Origin: a virus
Taxonomy: Duplodnaviria > Heunggongvirae > Uroviricota > Caudoviricetes
Reading direction: 5' to 3' (one strand)
Length of the DNA: 39,600 bases
IMG/VR virus record: IMGVR_UViG_2563366930_000006
Coordinates: 1-39,600 of that record
The position numbers were made by a program, and so were the translations under genes. Numbering within the stretch: position 1 is the first letter of the stretch; every line of letters starts with the position of its first letter. The notes below the pieces were generated by a model. It was not told the DNA's origin. It saw only the letters and a program-made list of their open reading frames with translations, and did not search any database. This document shows, piece after piece, positions 1 to 39,600 of the stretch.

Positions 1-2955
1 TTAGTGCTTCCCTTCTATTAAGTCTAACCTAGCTTTTATTCTTTCTATTTCTCTGCGCTGCCATGCCGCCTCGATATAGAATAAGAGATCAGGTCTGACC
101 CCCCATCTAGATCCTGCTGGCGTTATTTCAACGCGCTCAATGATGTCTTCCATTACCATCACTGGATTATCATCCTCATCAACAATGATGCTCCCGTCAT
201 TATCAGTCAGCGGCATTTCCCTTTGGCCAGTAATGACGTCATCATATACTGCGGGATAATCGTCATAGCAAAGAAAGGCATATCGGCATGTTGTGCTTTC
301 TTCTTCCATGAGTCCGTGAGAAATAAGAACATCACGAAGTTGCTGCGCGATTACACCATGATGTATCCTCGCCCCTTCTTCCCCCTTTATAGCGACAGCG
401 TTCAGCCATTTATAAGCGATATACCTGACGTCACCCCAGGCATCCAGCAATGCTTCGTCAGGAGAGACCGGCTCTGTCTTTAATGTTCCGTCACTGGTAA
501 CCACAGGATTGGAGCCAAGATAAACTGTCGAGAACCTGTTTCCCGGACCACCAAGAGCATTTACATTATCAAGATAAGGTTTAACATCTCCGTTCTCAAA
601 AAGATGTTCGAGTGCGTTATATACCGCGCGACGTGGAGTACTGCTTCCGGAACCATGCAACGTTATCATTGCACCATCTGCTGAAGACGTTGTTTCACCG
701 CCGCTAACGATTAATCTCTGAGCGGTAACATCATCAGACGGTACTTTCTTCGCAATAATGGCGTAATTACCCTCAAGTTTGACTTCCGCGCGAACTTGTC
801 CTGATGTACCTGCATGGACAGTCAGTGACTGGACGGCAACATCATCTGTGAAATCAACGGGTACAGGAACCGTCCTCACGCCTGACGTCGACATAAAAGT
901 AGGAAGCGTTCTGTTAGGAGTGGCTCCGTAGACAAAATCCCTTGAAACAAATTCTTCCTGTTTAATTTTCACCCTGAAACAATACAAATCAGCCGGGTGA
1001 CCATCGTGAACATAAGGATATTTTCTGTTGTTATCCCCTATGCTCCATGGGTTTAGAAAGTCTTCCCCACCGAAAATGTAGTACAGCCAGTTGTCTTTGA
1101 TACAAACTGAACCAACACCAACCGCAGAGTTAACTATTCCGCCCTGATAAATCTGATCAGTAACATTAACCCACTCTACATTATCCAGACTCCACTCATT
1201 GACGTTAACTCTGGTCATAAATGTTCTTGGATAATTTCCTGCATAACGGTTATCAGGTTCTCCTCCTTCCCACTCACCAAATGCGCGCTCACTGCCAAAA
1301 ATAATCAGCTCATCGCCAACTTTGGCAAAAGGAAGGTTTGAGTGATGAACATTATTTGGGAAGCGAAGAGAATTCCATGATGTACCTAAATCAGAGCTTC
1401 TGTGCAATGAACTACCGGGTTGAGTACTTAATGTCCCCCTGGTCGTCAGATACAGAATGCCATCATAATATTTTACACATGGCTCAGATGCATTCGCCTC
1501 ATATTCTACAGGTATGCGTCTGCGAACAAAGCTACCAGGAGAACCGAAAGCATCAGAGAAATAGAGTATCCCAAGCTCGCGTGGATCAATATCACCATTA
1601 TGGTAGCCAACAGCAAAACTGTTATCGCTAATCGTCGCAAAACTGTGAATCTCAGTAACAGGAGTGCTTCCGTCAACAAAAGAAGGAATAGTTCCAAGAC
1701 TGGTTTTTCTCCATGGTGACGAGTGAAATGATGTACCAAAACTCCAGTATCTACCCTCGTTATTCTGATCCACATCCTGGGTATTTTGCGTCGTAACTGT
1801 AAAAGTATTTTTATCAATAACAGTAGTCACCGTCATATTCCCGGTAACACCTGTAACACCAGAGTTTGAGAAGTTGACAAAATCACCAGCAAATAATCCG
1901 TGATCAGTAATGCGAATATAAGCGACTTGCTGATTTGCTGCTTTCGTTATACCACCATAAACGCGAAGGCTGCGACTCATTGGGCGATCCCACAACTCTG
2001 CAACCTGCAGTTTATTTCCGCTCACGGTCCGCGTCTCAATTACAGCAAAAAGGCGATTTCTGACAACCCCCATACTCATGCAGTGATAGTTAACTGTGGG
2101 ATAGTTTTCATGTAAATCTGTAAGCCATTCCGGCGTTGTCCAGGTCTTCCCGTCATCTCCTGAGCGAACCCATGCAACATGGAGGTTATTTACACCATGG
2201 CGGTCTCCAGCCATAAAAGGCGCATAGATGACATTGTCATATACAAACGTTTTATCCTGCGTCCAGGCGTTGTACCACGGTGTATCTGTAATTTTAAATA
2301 ACTCTCCCTGGATAAAATCTTCAGAAGCATAAAAAAGAGGCTGACCCGGTATTCTCTCAAATAAAAAACGAGCATTTTTAAATCGACTGACATCTGGAAG
2401 AGTTGATACTTTAAAAGTAAGCCCTCGCCCATCTATCTTTTCACCACCTGTTGCAACAGAAAGTAATTCTGATAGAGCTGATGTATCATCATGAACACCA
2501 TCACCAATAGCCCCCCAACCTCTTACATCATAACTGTCTCTCCATCTTGCTATCTGAAGTTTTGGGTATTTATTCGCTCCATCTGGGTCTTCTAATTGCT
2601 GCCGTAACTGATCAGGATCATACTTCAGCACATTAGGAAAATAGAACTGCTGTGTACCATACGCATCATAAACAGCCATAGAATGGCCTTGCACGGTTAC
2701 GAATTTGGCAATCTGTCCGTTATATACCGGATATCCAGCAGCGTTAATGATGATTGGTTGCGAAACAGGAACGTGAGAACCGTTTTCGTTCTCCACATAA
2801 ACCTGAATCTGGTTTTCAGGATTTACAGGGTCAGTATCAATTTTACCGATATAAATTTTGCCATTGGCATTTGCTTTAAACGAGCGAGCTAAAGTAAATA
2901 ACTGACTTGGTTGTGAAACAACTACGTTGTATAATTGTTCTGGCATAATAAACAT
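1..2955 (-). CDS. Tailspike protein with P22-type N-terminal head-binding domain and C-terminal intramolecular-chaperone (S74-like) domain
   Basis: 984 aa ORF; N-terminus [37 protein letters not shown] resembles the P22 gp9 head-binding domain; C-terminal ~150 aa resembles the autoproteolytic chaperone of endosialidase-type fibers; stop TAA at 1-3. Confidence 0.9.
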
Positions 2956-2968
2956 TCCGGAGAAAATA

Positions 2969-3469
2969 ATGAGTAAGAGACGTCACGAGGTAGTAACTCG
3001 GGAGCGCCTTATGGAGGTTCTCGATTACAATAAAGAAACAGGAGTTTTCACTTGGAAAAAGAAATTAAGCGCCAGAGGTGCTGTTGGGAAAGTTGCTGGC
3101 ACAATTTCTTATGGATATAACGCAATTAATATTGATGGCGTAAGATATTTTGCACATAGACTTGCCTGGCTGTATGTATATGGCGAATGGCCCAAACAAG
3201 AGATTGACCACATTGATAGAAACAGAAGAAATAACGCAATCTCAAACCTTAGGGATGTCAGCAGAGTCGTAAATGCATTAAATGTCGGACCTCGAAATAG
3301 CAATGCTGGAATCAAGGGGGTAACTTTCTGTCAAGCCAGAAATCAATGGCAAGCTCAGATAAATGTCTCAGGTAAAAACATAACCCTTGGGAGATTCAAC
3401 ACCATTGATGAAGCGGCTATAGCTTATAAGGCAGCAAACATGGTTGCTGACCATCTGTTGAGTAGGTAA
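2969..3469 (+). CDS. HNH homing endonuclease with C-terminal AP2-type DNA-binding domain
   Basis: Motif [18 protein letters not shown] (HNH) followed by [40 protein letters not shown] (AP2-like); ATG at 2969 in the ORF frame. Confidence 0.75.
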
Positions 3470-3611
3470 TGTCTGTCATTTAATTTGCTCCAGATACAAG
3501 GAATCGCCGCAGCATGGCTACGGTTGATGTTTGTTGCATACCGAAATGGTACGATTGTTGATTTGTACAGTAGGTTTTACGATGCCATTCCACCCATTTG
3601 GTGAGGCATTG

Positions 3612-3869
3612 ATGATGTACAGCAAATACGATGAGGCGCAGTTCCACTTGAGGCTTACGCACGAGTTGCACGCTAAGATTAAGCAGCGTGCAAAAATGAA
3701 TAACAGGTCTATCAATTCCGAAATTGTGGCTACGATGGAAGAATCACTCTCCAAACCATCACCTGTAAGCGGGTATCGTGATGAAGAAGAGAGGTTGGCC
3801 TCATTAATCTCGGAGCGAGTAAAAGAAGTTGCGGCTGATATCCTTAGAAAAGAAAAAACCCGCGATTAA
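3612..3869 (+). CDS. mnt: Mnt-like ribbon-helix-helix repressor
   Basis: NNRSINSEIVATMEESLSKPSPVSGYRDEEERLA resembles P22 Mnt; GGTGAGG RBS before tandem ATG ATG at 3612. Confidence 0.75.
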   Translation: MMYSKYDEAQFHLRLTHELHAKIKQRAKMNNRSINSEIVATMEESLSKPSPVSGYRDEEERLASLISERVKEVAADILRKEKTRD

Positions 3870-3880
3870 GCGGGTTTAGT
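3853..3880. terminator. Bidirectional intrinsic terminator between convergent genes
   Basis: Stem CCCGC/GCGGG with loop GATTAA, A-run on one side and T-rich tract on the other; the mnt stop codon lies in the loop. Confidence 0.6.
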
Positions 3881-3883
3881 TGG

Positions 3884-4105
3884 TTAGTTATCAAAAAGTC
3901 CGTACGTTTCTTCTTCTTCAGGTGTAAGGGGAAGAATCTCTACTCTATCTATAGATATCTTTTCAATGTACCCATGAGGTCTACTTAAAATTAAAGCTCT
4001 CTCATGCCACAGAACTCCAAGAATGTGATACCTTCCAGCATCGCCTTTTACCCTGGCTCTTCCTTTGATTCTTGGCGGCATAATGCCATATTTTTTCTTT
4101 GCCAT
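3884..4105 (-). CDS. Hypothetical 73 aa protein, translationally coupled to the upstream gene
   Basis: ORF with ATG overlapping the upstream stop by one base (TAATG); followed by the bidirectional terminator. Confidence 0.45.
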   Translation of the reverse strand: MAKKKYGIMPPRIKGRARVKGDAGRYHILGVLWHERALILSRPHGYIEKISIDRVEILPLTPEEEETYGLFDN

Positions 4106-4833
4106 TATGCAACATTACTCCCATGAATCAGGTGTTGTAGTGCTTTAACACCTTCCTCATTGTAGCGGAATGCTTCCACCTGTTTGCTGGAATGCGCAGA
4201 TTTATCCAGGAAGAACTTCCCGTACTGCTCAGTTTTGAGGTTGTTTGCGTTAGCAATGCGACCAATCTTGTTGGCCGTTACTCCAAGCTGCTCTGCAACC
4301 TCCCCTGCTGAGTAGTAATGCTCTTCTATTGCTGGAAGAGGTATTGCATTAAAACCAACGATCGGGTTGATTATGCTTGCTGCCGCAGTCTGCTTTGCTT
4401 CCGGCGCAAGATTTGGCATCAAATCGAACAGATTGGTAACAGCTTCAACCGTCATTTTCAATGTTCGCGCCTGGCGATACTCAACAAGTCCACTAGACGA
4501 TTTACCGCTTTTAATGTGCGCTTCTTGCATACTTTCAAGTTGGTCTACAAGTGAGCGGCGAACAGCTTTAGATTCACGAGCAGCCACTCGAAGGGCTTGC
4601 TTAATTGACATAACAACTTTTTCAGAAGTTGTCTTGTTTGATTTTTGAACTACGAAAATTTCGTAGTGCTCACCTTCAAGTTCATCCTTAATGCGTGCAA
4701 TAAAGTCGTTATTGCGGACTTCTTTTTCCCCGCACTGTCTACGAGCATGATTGACCATCTCTAACAGGTACTGGCTATCAATGGTTTTATCCGTGACAAC
4801 GGATCCGATGTTTGCTACATTCTTAAAAGTCAT
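4105..4833 (-). CDS. Antirepressor-like protein with C-terminal KilAC-type domain
   Basis: C-terminal YSAGEVAEQLGVTANKIGRIANANNLKTEQYGKFF resembles the KilAC domain; ATG at 4833 with AAGGAA RBS; upstream in-frame codons judged non-coding. Confidence 0.6.
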   Translation of the reverse strand: MTFKNVANIGSVVTDKTIDSQYLLEMVNHARRQCGEKEVRNNDFIARIKDELEGEHYEIFVVQKSNKTTSEKVVMSIKQALRVAARESKAVRRSLVDQLESMQEAHIKSGKSSSGLVEYRQARTLKMTVEAVTNLFDLMPNLAPEAKQTAAASIINPIVGFNAIPLPAIEEHYYSAGEVAEQLGVTANKIGRIANANNLKTEQYGKFFLDKSAHSSKQVEAFRYNEEGVKALQHLIHGSNVA

Positions 4834-4902
4834 TAGGCATTCCTTATGTGGTAGTAAGGGTGTGACATAGGCCGCCAGCAGCACACTGGCGGTTTTCTTT
4901 TT
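4829..4902 (+). ncRNA. Candidate sar-like cis-antisense RNA (copy 2) over the start and RBS of the KilAC-domain gene
   Basis: Extended -10-like TGCTACATT at 4813-4821, then a canonical intrinsic terminator (stem GCCGCCAG/CTGGCGG, then TTTTCTTTTT) at 4871-4902 on the strand opposite the gene. Confidence 0.35.
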
Positions 4903-4921
4903 GCGCCGTCCGGCGCACCAA

Positions 4922-5548
4922 TCAATGAATCCATTCCTCGCCGCGCAGTTTTGCCAGCATTGGCTGAGCGTTCTTTACGACAAAATTGTTGGTATCAAGA
5001 TTCTTCATTTCACGAAGAAGTGATTTCTTGGTTTCTTCTGACATGTAGCGAGTCTCATATGCAATATCGTAAATCCTTCCTGAAAGCTCAGAACCAATTT
5101 GCTTCATTCCTGGGTAGATGTGTTTGCACATTTGTTGACTCTTCTCCATCCACAATTGTAAGTAGCAGAGATTAACCAGTTCTTCGTCAGTAAACTGTTT
5201 TGCAATCGGTGAGCATTCTGCCTGCCGATCCAAAATATCCAGCACCCAGCGGCGGAACTCTTTGGCTACCTGAGTGCGAGCAAACATCGCGATTAGGTGG
5301 GCACCGCGTAGTGAGAAAACACGCACTTTTTTGCGATAATTTCCTGAGGTACTCACTTCGAGTACCTGAGTCATTCCGGCGCTAAACTCATCGCTATACT
5401 TGTTATAAATCATTGTTACTGCACGACTATTTGCGTATTTAAGTGCAGATGCAATATTAGATGATGTAAACCAAACACCATGCATATCACGGGTGGGCAC
5501 CAATTCAACTCCGTGGAAGTTGTAATCTGATTTTGCTACAATATTCAT
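4922..5548 (-). CDS. ant: Antirepressor with AntA/Bro-N-type domain
   Basis: N-terminal region FHGVELVPTRDMHGVWFTSSNIASALKY typical of AntA-like antirepressors; ATG at 5548 with AAGGAAA RBS; sits downstream of arc. Confidence 0.7.
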   Translation of the reverse strand: MNIVAKSDYNFHGVELVPTRDMHGVWFTSSNIASALKYANSRAVTMIYNKYSDEFSAGMTQVLEVSTSGNYRKKVRVFSLRGAHLIAMFARTQVAKEFRRWVLDILDRQAECSPIAKQFTDEELVNLCYLQLWMEKSQQMCKHIYPGMKQIGSELSGRIYDIAYETRYMSEETKKSLLREMKNLDTNNFVVKNAQPMLAKLRGEEWIH

Positions 5549-5625
5549 GTTAGTTTCCTTGCATACGGTTACTGACATAGAGGCCCGGTTTGTGTTCACG
5601 CACTGCCGGGCTTCACTATTTTTAC
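5549..5625 (+). ncRNA. sar: Candidate sar-like antisense RNA (copy 1) covering the ant RBS and the arc-ant intercistronic region
   Basis: Extended -10-like TGCTACAAT at 5534-5542 directly antisense to the ant start; stem GCCCGG/CCGGGC at 5582-5610 then T-rich tract; same architecture as P22 sar. Confidence 0.4.
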
Positions 5626-5795
5626 TGGGCATTAGCTCTTTCCTCTCTCAGGCTTTTAGCCAGTCGCTGCACAATCGCAGAGTTGATAGAAATTCCATCC
5701 ATTTCAGCAACACGTCTAATCTCCTCCTTCATTCGCGCTGGCAAACGAAGCTGGAAACTTTGACTTTTACGACCTGTGTAAAGCACATCTTTCAT
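5622..5795 (-). CDS. arc: Arc-like ribbon-helix-helix repressor
   Basis: 57 aa; SQSFQLRLPARMKEEIRRVAEMDGISINSAIVQRL is an RHH fold; GGGAGGA RBS before ATG at 5795. Confidence 0.75.
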   Translation of the reverse strand: MKDVLYTGRKSQSFQLRLPARMKEEIRRVAEMDGISINSAIVQRLAKSLREERANAQ

Positions 5796-5822
5796 AAGTA
5801 ATCCTCCCACAATGATACCAAC

Positions 5823-5838
5823 TTGGTTCTAGAACCAA
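5823..5838. promoter_or_regulatory. Perfect 16-bp palindrome TTGGTTCTAGAACCAA in the divergent arc / mnt-like promoter region; candidate RHH operator
   Basis: Exact inverted repeat read directly in the 111-bp divergent intergenic region. Confidence 0.5.
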
Positions 5839-5906
5839 TTTAACACCATTTATTTTGATGTCAAGTTGGTGCTATTGTTTAGCGAACATCTTTACGTTGA
5901 GGTCAT

Positions 5907-6227
5907 ATGAGCAAGTTCCCTAGTCATGAAATGGATAGGTTCAATATCAGGCTTCCTGCAGGAATGCGGGATGCTATAGCTGAACGAGCCAAACGTAACG
6001 GCAGATCAATGAACTCAGAGATTGTTCAGATACTGGAAGATGCCTTGAATGCAGAAAATACACTCGGGGAAATAGCAGATAAAATCAACAGCGTCTCGGT
6101 TCCGCTAAATGTTGATGCGCTAGTTCAACTTCAAGCCCAGGTTATCGCCATGCAAAAAGAAATACAGGAAAAGTTCAGAGAGCAGAACGAAAAGTTGAGA
6201 GAACTGCTAAACAAAAAAACCACCTGA
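5907..6227 (+). CDS. Second Mnt/Arc-family RHH regulator with C-terminal coiled coil
   Basis: RFNIRLPAGMRDAIAERAKRNGRSMNSEIVQILEDAL is an RHH motif; divergent from arc as mnt is in P22. Confidence 0.7.
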   Translation: MSKFPSHEMDRFNIRLPAGMRDAIAERAKRNGRSMNSEIVQILEDALNAENTLGEIADKINSVSVPLNVDALVQLQAQVIAMQKEIQEKFREQNEKLRELLNKKTT

Positions 6228-38825: not shown

Positions 38826-39102
38826 CCTGCAACTTGCCGTTAAAGGTGAATACTTCGATGCCATGATTCGCGGAGAGAAAACGGAAGAGTATCGCCTGTG
38901 TAATGACTACTGGAATAAGCGAATTATGTTCCGCGAGTATGACCGCCTGATTATCACAAAGGGATATCCGAAGCGCGACGATTCCAGCCGTAGAATTGAT
39001 GTTCCGTATGACGGATATGAAATCAAGACAATCACACATCCGCACTTCGGCGATAAACCGGTAAAGGTGTTCGCGATAAAGGTGAATATCAGCAATGAAT
39101 AA
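38818..39102 (+). CDS. DUF3850/ASCH-like protein, GTG start
   Basis: AAAGGAGGAAGG RBS before GTG; EYFDAMIRGEKTEEYRLCNDYWNKR ... EYDRLIITKGY fits the ASCH-like pattern. Confidence 0.5.
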   Translation: MANLQLAVKGEYFDAMIRGEKTEEYRLCNDYWNKRIMFREYDRLIITKGYPKRDDSSRRIDVPYDGYEIKTITHPHFGDKPVKVFAIKVNISNE

Positions 39103-39174
39103 CAATCCTCGCATTCGCGGGGATTTCTTTTATCTGAACTCGCTACGGCGGGTTTTGTTTTATGGAGATGATAA

Positions 39175-39342
39175 ATGCACTTCCGAGTCACAGGTGAATG
39201 GAATGGAGAACCATTCAACAGAGTTATCGAAGCAGAGAACATCAATGACTGCTATGACCACTGGATGATATGGGCGCAGATAGCACATGCAGACGTAACC
39301 AATATTCGAATTGAAGAACTGAAAGAACACCAAGCCGCCTGA
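39175..39342 (+). CDS. Hypothetical small protein (55 aa); not in the supplied ORF track
   Basis: GGAG RBS 7 nt before ATG at 39175; stop sits in the downstream terminator stem. Confidence 0.35.
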   Translation: MHFRVTGEWNGEPFNRVIEAENINDCYDHWMIWAQIAHADVTNIRIEELKEHQAA

Positions 39343-39356
39343 TGGCGGTTTTTTAT
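39334..39356 (+). terminator. Intrinsic terminator upstream of xis
   Basis: Stem GCCGCC/GGCGGT with loop TGAT then TTTTTTATT. Confidence 0.5.
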
Positions 39357-39399
39357 TGCCTGATTTGCAGGTTCGATTCCCTATTTGGAGATAGCACTC

Positions 39400-39600
39400 A
39401 TGCAACACGAACTACAGCCTGATTCACTGGTTGATTTGAAATTCATCATGGCTGATACTGGCTTTGGTAAAACCTTCATCTATGACCGGATTAAGTCCGG
39501 GGACCTGCCTAAAGCCAAAGTTATCCACGGGCGAGCAAGATGGTTATATCGTGACCATTGTGAATTCAAAAATAAGCTCTTAAGCCGCGCCAATGGGTAA
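39400..39600 (+). CDS. xis: Excisionase (Xis/AlpA-type winged helix)
   Basis: 66 aa; LVDLKFIMADTGFGKTFIYDRIKSGDLPKAKVIHGRARWLYRDHCEF fits the excisionase/AlpA pattern; last gene of the early-left operon; stop at the window edge. Confidence 0.6.
   Translation: MQHELQPDSLVDLKFIMADTGFGKTFIYDRIKSGDLPKAKVIHGRARWLYRDHCEFKNKLLSRANG

Follow-up and report, generated by a model that had tools for sequence, protein, structure and literature searches.

A predicted CUS-3-type K1 endosialidase tailspike in a P22-like prophage of Escherichia coli, with an HNH cassette in its ancestral gene start

The first 2955 positions of a 39,600-nt viral sequence (the whole stretch analyzed here, called the window) are occupied by one long minus-strand gene, and the locus raises the question of which tailspike this gene encodes, what that spike would degrade, and where its reading frame begins. 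The ORF list gives a single intact ORF running from 2955 to 1 (984 aa). The ATG at 2946, which is the fourth codon of this maximal ORF, is most likely the real tailspike start and gives a protein of 981 aa. It is favored because it aligns with codon 1 of P22 gp9, HK620 gp9 and CUS-3 siaK1, because genes of 2946 nt are annotated in CUS-3, vB_EcoP-720R6 and an E. coli RefSeq genome, and because of its spacing from a GGA: this triplet is 9 nt upstream of the ATG at 2946 but immediately adjacent to the one at 2955. We therefore count residues from 2946; Pfam and PDB ranges in ORF numbering are higher by 3. An earlier note on this DNA had placed the start at 2955, and its coordinates hold apart from that one correction.

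Judged by profile, structure and pairwise comparisons, the protein is a three-part mosaic, with similarities far beyond chance (Table 1). About the first 120 residues had been described as P22-like, and aa 1–113 are indeed 74% identical to gp9, with no real similarity beyond about aa 124. The same domain is 94% identical to that of HK620 and 93% identical to that of CUS-3, and it ends in the YDPDQ motif shared with the P22, HK620 and Sf6 tailspikes. P22 and Sf6 head-binding structures matched roughly residues 7–130 at E values of 1e-43 to 3e-60, the latter for 7sg7 (head-binding domain of Sf6 gp14); 1lkt matched at E 8e-43. At the junction, HK620-type similarity fades near aa 124 and K1F-type similarity starts earlier, at aa 114; the local alignment to P22 gp9 dropped to 27% identity over the 33 positions aligned within aa 114–160. 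The gp9 body (a right-handed parallel beta-helix, residues ~125–666) had no Pfam or PDB match in the tailspike, and full-length similarity to gp9 was looked for and not found.

Endosialidase domains take the place of that body, so the note was correct that the center differs from P22. The mature K1F endosialidase chains 1v0e, 3gvl, 3gvj and 3gvk matched residues 148–820 with E = 0, PDB 4hiz (deposited as "Endosialidase") matched at E 1e-272, and PHROGs assigned the protein to phrog_1171, tail spike protein, with E = 0. A chaperone tail of about 150 residues was also borne out, both by the Peptidase_S74 profile and by PDB 3gw6, a crystal of the K1F stalk and chaperone (E 8e-95 over aa 701–982). 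Since similarity to gp9 does not run the full length and an autoprocessing module is present, the mosaic reading stands.

Table 1. Features of the tailspike locus. Residues are counted from the ATG at 2946; profile ranges are in ORF numbering.
Feature	Window position	Strand	Residues	Profile (range)	Evidence and remarks
Endosialidase tailspike gene (siaK1 allele)	1..2946	-	1-981		981 codons, stop at 1-3; ORF list, identity with CUS-3
P22-type head-binding domain	2608..2946	-	1-113	Head_binding (4-116)	Pfam PF09008, E 3e-63, profile positions 1-113/113; PDB 1lkt, 2vky, 7sg7
Linker and module junction	2512..2607	-	114-145		Pairwise alignments
Endosialidase N-terminal extension	2311..2511	-	146-212	End_N_terminal (149-215)	Pfam PF12218, E 9e-37, full-length profile match; 61% identical to K1F
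Catalytic six-bladed beta-propeller	961..2310	-	213-662	End_beta_propel (216-665)	Pfam PF12217, E 8e-233, full-length profile match; 70% identical to K1F
Beta-barrel nested in propeller	1729..1977	-	324-406	End_beta_barrel (327-409)	Pfam PF12195, E 1e-46, full-length profile match
Stalk (triple beta-helix and beta-prism)	496..960	-	663-817	End_tail_spike (666-820)	Pfam PF12219, E 7e-78, profile positions 1-160/160
C-terminal intramolecular chaperone / Peptidase_S74	4..495	-	818-981	Peptidase_S74 (821-881)	Pfam PF13884, E 2e-10; PDB 3gw6
Equivalent of K1F H350			His250		Pairwise alignment with K1F
Equivalent of K1F R549			Arg456		Pairwise alignment with K1F
Equivalent of K1F E581			Glu488		Pairwise alignment with K1F
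Equivalent of K1F R596			Arg503		Pairwise alignment with K1F
Equivalent of K1F R647			Arg554		Pairwise alignment with K1F
Inserted cassette, about 537 bp	2929..3465				HNH ORF, 22-nt spacer and six tailspike codons; BLAST breakpoints, alignment
HNH endonuclease ORF	2969..3469	+		HNH_3	Pfam, E 2e-16
Replacement tailspike codons MPEQLY	2946..2929	-	1-6		Alignment
Stranded ancestral ribosome-binding site and first 14 nt (ATGACAGACATTAC = MTDIT)	3466..3524	-			BLAST, alignment

K1F endoNF (gp17) has the same architecture of propeller, barrel, stalk and chaperone and is 64% identical over aa 114–980 (56% in the stalk and 56% in the chaperone), and the propeller of the window protein carries a 7-residue insertion, FVDGSTP, relative to it. 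The two differ at the other end: K1F has a T7-type N-terminal tail-attachment domain, whereas the window protein has a P22-type head-binding domain with no K1F similarity before aa 114. P22 gp9, HK620 gp9 and Sf6 gp14 have right-handed beta-helix endoglycosidase bodies, which are absent from the window spike, and unlike it they have no cleaved S74 chaperone. The T5 pb1 fiber and the phi29 and GA-1 appendages, whose intramolecular chaperones belong to Peptidase S74, have the C-terminal module alone in common with it. They share the Ser-Lys dyad and the spacing of the Asp, Arg and Thr residues; their receptor-binding parts are unrelated.

The proposal that the chaperone cuts itself off is supported by the conservation of the cleavage residues within the predicted Peptidase_S74 module. 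K1F S911 and K916 align with Ser818 (493–495) and Lys823 (478–480), which lie in the motif TSDGTLK. Upstream of Ser818, Asp793 is 25 residues away and Arg804 is 14. The spacing of D793, R804, T817, S818 and K823 is that of T5 pb1 D1239, R1250, T1263, S1264 and K1269, and it is also in register with K1F. A mechanism of autocleavage by the Ser-Lys dyad has been described (PMC3742443). In T5 pb1 the serine departs with the chaperone and the arginine is supplied by a neighboring chain, so that cleavage needs a correctly folded trimer (PMC4690869). The mature endoNF crystal chains 1v0e and 3gvl stop at the threonine that aligns with Thr817. From those chain ends and the departure of the T5 serine with its chaperone, the predicted products are aa 1–817 and aa 818–981. 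By analogy with K1F and T5 biochemistry, the chaperone would be released autoproteolytically after the trimer has folded.

The closest characterized relative is siaK1 of CUS-3, a prophage of E. coli K1 RS218. The two proteins are identical at 962 of 981 residues (98%; ABQ88383.1) without a gap, and they share their length of 981 aa, their domain order, their catalytic and cleavage residues, and their genomic location, last in the late operon of a P22-like prophage. At the DNA level, positions 1–2868 are 99.3% identical to CUS-3 siaK1 and 99.5% identical to vB_EcoP-720R6. At least 80% of the tailspike gene is present in 181 of 5426 complete E. coli genomes. According to a review (PMC5380687), CUS-3, HK620, Sf6 and P22 have the N-terminal tailspike domain in common; the CUS-3 catalytic domain is a K1-antigen-specific endosialidase shared with K1F, whose N-terminus is T7-type. 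We are highly confident that the window encodes a CUS-3-type K1 endosialidase tailspike of a CUS-3-like, P22-like (Lederbergvirus) prophage of E. coli K1; its domain content, its near-identity to siaK1 and its conserved catalytic and cleavage residues are direct observations.

The surroundings point to the same kind of prophage. The remainder of the window shows synteny at 94–98% nucleotide identity with CUS-3 and with further P22-like phages, among them HK620, Kapi1 and Sf101. The CUS-3 match covers 56–58% of each half of the window, which is the usual lambdoid mosaic. The tailspike gene lies at the distal end of the late operon, after a gene 16 homologue and the ant/imm I region, with Arc-like and antirepressor genes at 3531–6227. 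Taken as a whole, the window is a CUS-3-like Lederbergvirus prophage. The AAGACTC heptanucleotide repeat of neuO, which adjoins siaK1 in CUS-3, had no match in the window. The window's first position belongs to the tailspike stop codon, which would place neuO and int, if the prophage has them, outside it. A tRNA scan of the window found none, so no att-site tRNA is visible there. Over positions 1–4200, a promoter scan gave 7 sites against a shuffle mean of 9.5, showing no excess of promoter-like sites, and a terminator scan gave a single convincing hairpin at 3877–3856.

The differences from CUS-3 are unevenly distributed along the gene. Ten of the 19 substitutions fall in aa 1–26, and the first 99 nt of the gene are 65% identical to CUS-3, rising to 97–100% from gene nt 199 onward. 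Informative sites are of the Kapi1 type from gene nt 1 to about 195 and of the CUS-3 type from about nt 210. The cause of this divergence is that the CUS-3 start has given way to an HNH cassette together with a 5' segment of Kapi1 type; immediately upstream of the tailspike, the window has an HNH gene where CUS-3 has the "bsq1" boundary sequence and ant. The remnant at 3466–3524, comprising upstream region, GGAG and the first five codons, is 91–98% identical to gene 9 of P22, CUS-3 and HK620, but it opens only a 20-codon ORF (3479..3417). The TAA stop of the HNH ORF overlaps ancestral tailspike codon 4, and the tailspike gene matches P22 gene 9 again from codon 7 on. In CUS-3, HK620, P22 and 720R6 the cassette is absent, both flanks lie close together and the gene-9 start is intact; the intact start in CUS-3, P22 or HK620 includes GGAGCAAATTAAATGACAGACATTACAGCCAATGT.

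The HNH protein scored 59.7 bits against HNH_3 (cut-off 24.8) and 27.7 bits against AP2, which is under the cut-off of 33.3. NCBIfam profiles matched neither this protein nor the tailspike. Its relatives, none above 47% identity, carry homing-endonuclease annotations, and T5-like phages have multiple copies of them. The cassette is 99.4% identical in phage Kapi1, whose tailspike body differs. Of 5426 complete E. coli genomes, 15 carry the cassette, with at least two annotated tailspike types, and only one, strain 23CRST044, pairs it with the endosialidase body.

This insertion is the basis for suspecting that the gene is a decaying or non-functional spike of a cryptic prophage. Under that reading, the cassette removed a strong ribosome-binding site and altered the N-terminus, so that the spike would be poorly made or unable to dock to the tail. 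The ancestral GGAG and ATG are indeed stranded 520 bp upstream, the new start has only a weak GGA, and the first six residues have been replaced. However, the ORF is intact through 981 codons, the same length as in CUS-3, and Kapi1, an isolated phage with a complete genome deposited, has an identical cassette and N-terminus. Since Kapi1 carries it, the 5' arrangement is compatible with a viable P22-like phage. In addition, the first 33 codons contain 22 codon differences, of which 13 are synonymous, consistent with purifying selection. Decay is thus highly improbable, and we rejected a pseudogene as the main explanation because of the intact ORF and the same 5' arrangement in Kapi1. The differences from CUS-3, more than half of them in the first 26 residues, may still affect translation efficiency or tail attachment.

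The earlier note had recognized the endosialidase-type chaperone but missed that the enzyme preceding it is itself an endosialidase, and its statement that sequence alone does not reveal the receptor specificity does not hold: the central 670 residues make up a complete endosialidase, and the protein shares 98% identity with the assayed siaK1 of CUS-3. All five reported catalytic or substrate residues of K1F are conserved, and their equivalents lie in the propeller (Table 1). A deep mutational scan of the K1F spike (PMC12632334) names these residues as catalytic or substrate-binding and as intolerant of mutation. In GenBank, CUS-3 siaK1 is annotated with endo-alpha-sialidase activity (GO:0016996, evidence code IDA, PMID 16689790). 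By this sequence relationship the predicted substrate is alpha-2,8-polysialic acid, the E. coli K1 capsule, because a protein 98% identical to it is annotated from direct assay and described as K1-antigen specific. The CUS-3 annotation serves here as a proxy, from which we infer that the window allele would hydrolyze alpha-2,8-polysialic acid.

Could the substrate preference have shifted relative to CUS-3, for example toward O-acetylated polysialic acid or the mixed alpha-2,8/2,9 K92 polymer? Of the nine substitutions outside the N-terminal tip, V207A, G454D, A480V and R767G fall in the enzyme body or stalk, and G454D is only two residues away from Arg456. The known catalytic residues are nevertheless all unchanged, nothing in the data indicates a change of specificity, and CUS-3 siaK1 alleles normally differ to this degree (98% identity), so we give a shift very little credence. 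The earlier proposal of a depolymerase body of unspecified capsule or O-antigen specificity, which fits a body unrelated to the P22 gp9 endorhamnosidase beta-helix, has a close to negligible chance of being right, given a complete endosialidase with 64% identity to the structure-solved K1F enzyme and 98% to the assayed CUS-3 enzyme, and with all checked catalytic residues conserved.

For a CUS-3-type K1 endosialidase tailspike, a mechanism can be proposed from homology to K1F endoNF, CUS-3 siaK1 and P22 gp9, and the activity, cleavage and virion attachment of the window allele are predicted on that basis. The C-terminal chaperone domain would guide trimerization and nucleate folding of the triple beta-helix. 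Once the stalk had formed correctly, the Ser818-Lys823 dyad would cut the chain at Ser818, assisted by Asp793 and by Arg804 of the neighboring subunit. This would free the 164-residue chaperone and leave a stable mature trimer of aa 1–817. [quoted passage not shown] Hydrolysis of the K1 capsule would in turn allow the phage to tunnel through it to the outer membrane.

How the cassette came to lie in the gene start is a separate matter. It shows a presence/absence polymorphism at a fixed site, and a conserved sequence is disrupted by the insertion. Together with a flanking tract of donor type, this is the pattern that homing produces, but homologous recombination of the ordinary kind, acting within the conserved head-binding region, accounts for it just as well. 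Under homing, the insertion would have detached the gene from its old start and given it a new one, and the co-converted tract would be the first ~65 head-binding codons, which are Kapi1-type here. We found no paper on the cassette and none linking Kapi1 and HNH; the one mention of a homing endonuclease in the epsilon34 paper concerns another gene. That the cassette encodes an active homing endonuclease targeting the conserved P22-like tailspike start, whose cleavage promotes body-swapping recombination and so spreads specificities, is a speculative idea that we regard as unlikely.

The tailspike itself is an ordinary, already characterized protein to which this analysis adds nothing new. The combination in CUS-3 of a P22-type anchor, a K1F-type enzyme and an S74 chaperone is published, textbook tailspike mosaicism. 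Its value is in annotation: the prophage would be specific for the K1 capsule, and its host would accordingly belong to a K1 or K1-derived lineage. As a reagent for degrading polysialic acid, the allele could be one more option. The cassette in the gene start is a mildly new side observation that could bear on the exchange of tailspike modules. If the homing proposal were true, cutting would promote recombination at precisely the module boundary used by P22-like phages to exchange receptor-binding bodies, and a selfish element would help to move tailspike specificities, here the K1 endosialidase, between phages.

The 5' end of the ancestral tailspike gene is interrupted by an HNH endonuclease cassette lying in the opposite orientation, whose endonuclease carries an HNH_3 domain together with a weak AP2 match. 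The former ribosome-binding site and MTDIT start of the tailspike were left stranded and now begin a 20-codon ORF, while the present start and six codons (MPEQLY) come from the cassette itself. Of 5426 E. coli genomes, 15 carry the same cassette, as does the P22-like phage Kapi1; in these it is linked to other tailspike bodies.

The initial ~195 nt of the tailspike gene are of the Kapi1 type and the rest is of the type found in CUS-3, an E. coli K1 prophage; recombination has therefore joined the two within the part of the gene that encodes the head-binding domain. In codons 1–33, 22 codons differ, and 13 of these differences are synonymous. Relative to K1F endoNF, the endosialidase of phage K1F, the beta-propeller contains seven additional residues (FVDGSTP, residues 420–426 of the window protein), and CUS-3 has them too. 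The position of endoNF Gln853, presumably part of a polysialic-acid binding site in the stalk, is occupied by Met760.

In CUS-3, the endosialidase tailspike gene siaK1 is flanked by int and neuO, an O-acetyltransferase gene with AAGACTC repeats. Since position 1 of the window is exactly the tailspike stop codon, both flanking genes are outside our view; the window contains neither an AAGACTC heptad repeat nor a tRNA. The right end matches, at 100% identity, a region with torI (excisionase-like) and an ASCH domain in prophages of strains that also carry this tailspike.

The tailspike is separated from the gene-16 homologue by a region resembling an "ant moron" or immunity I region. Its gene set differs from that of the equivalent region of CUS-3, which consists of ant and two mnt genes.

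Features in and around the tailspike gene and at the right end of the window
Feature	Coordinates	Strand
FVDGSTP insertion	1669-1689	
Tailspike segment containing the Kapi1-type to CUS-3-type change	2740-2946	
HNH cassette with the stranded former start region of the tailspike	2929-3524	
Former ribosome-binding site and MTDIT start	3466-3491	
Immunity I-like region	3531-6227	
Arc-like ribbon-helix-helix ORF	3531-3869	+
Terminator-like hairpin	3856-3877	-
ORF, no Pfam match	3884-4105	-
ORF, no Pfam match	4105-4884	-
Bro-N/P22_AR_C antirepressor	4922-5632	-
Arc-like ribbon-helix-helix ORF	5907-6227	+
torI/ASCH-domain prophage region	39000-39600	

Upstream of the tailspike, its coding strand contains a strong hairpin that resembles a terminator: AAACCCGC-loop-GCGGGTTT and then a T-run. 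Late transcription of the tailspike would have to pass both this hairpin and the antisense HNH gene.
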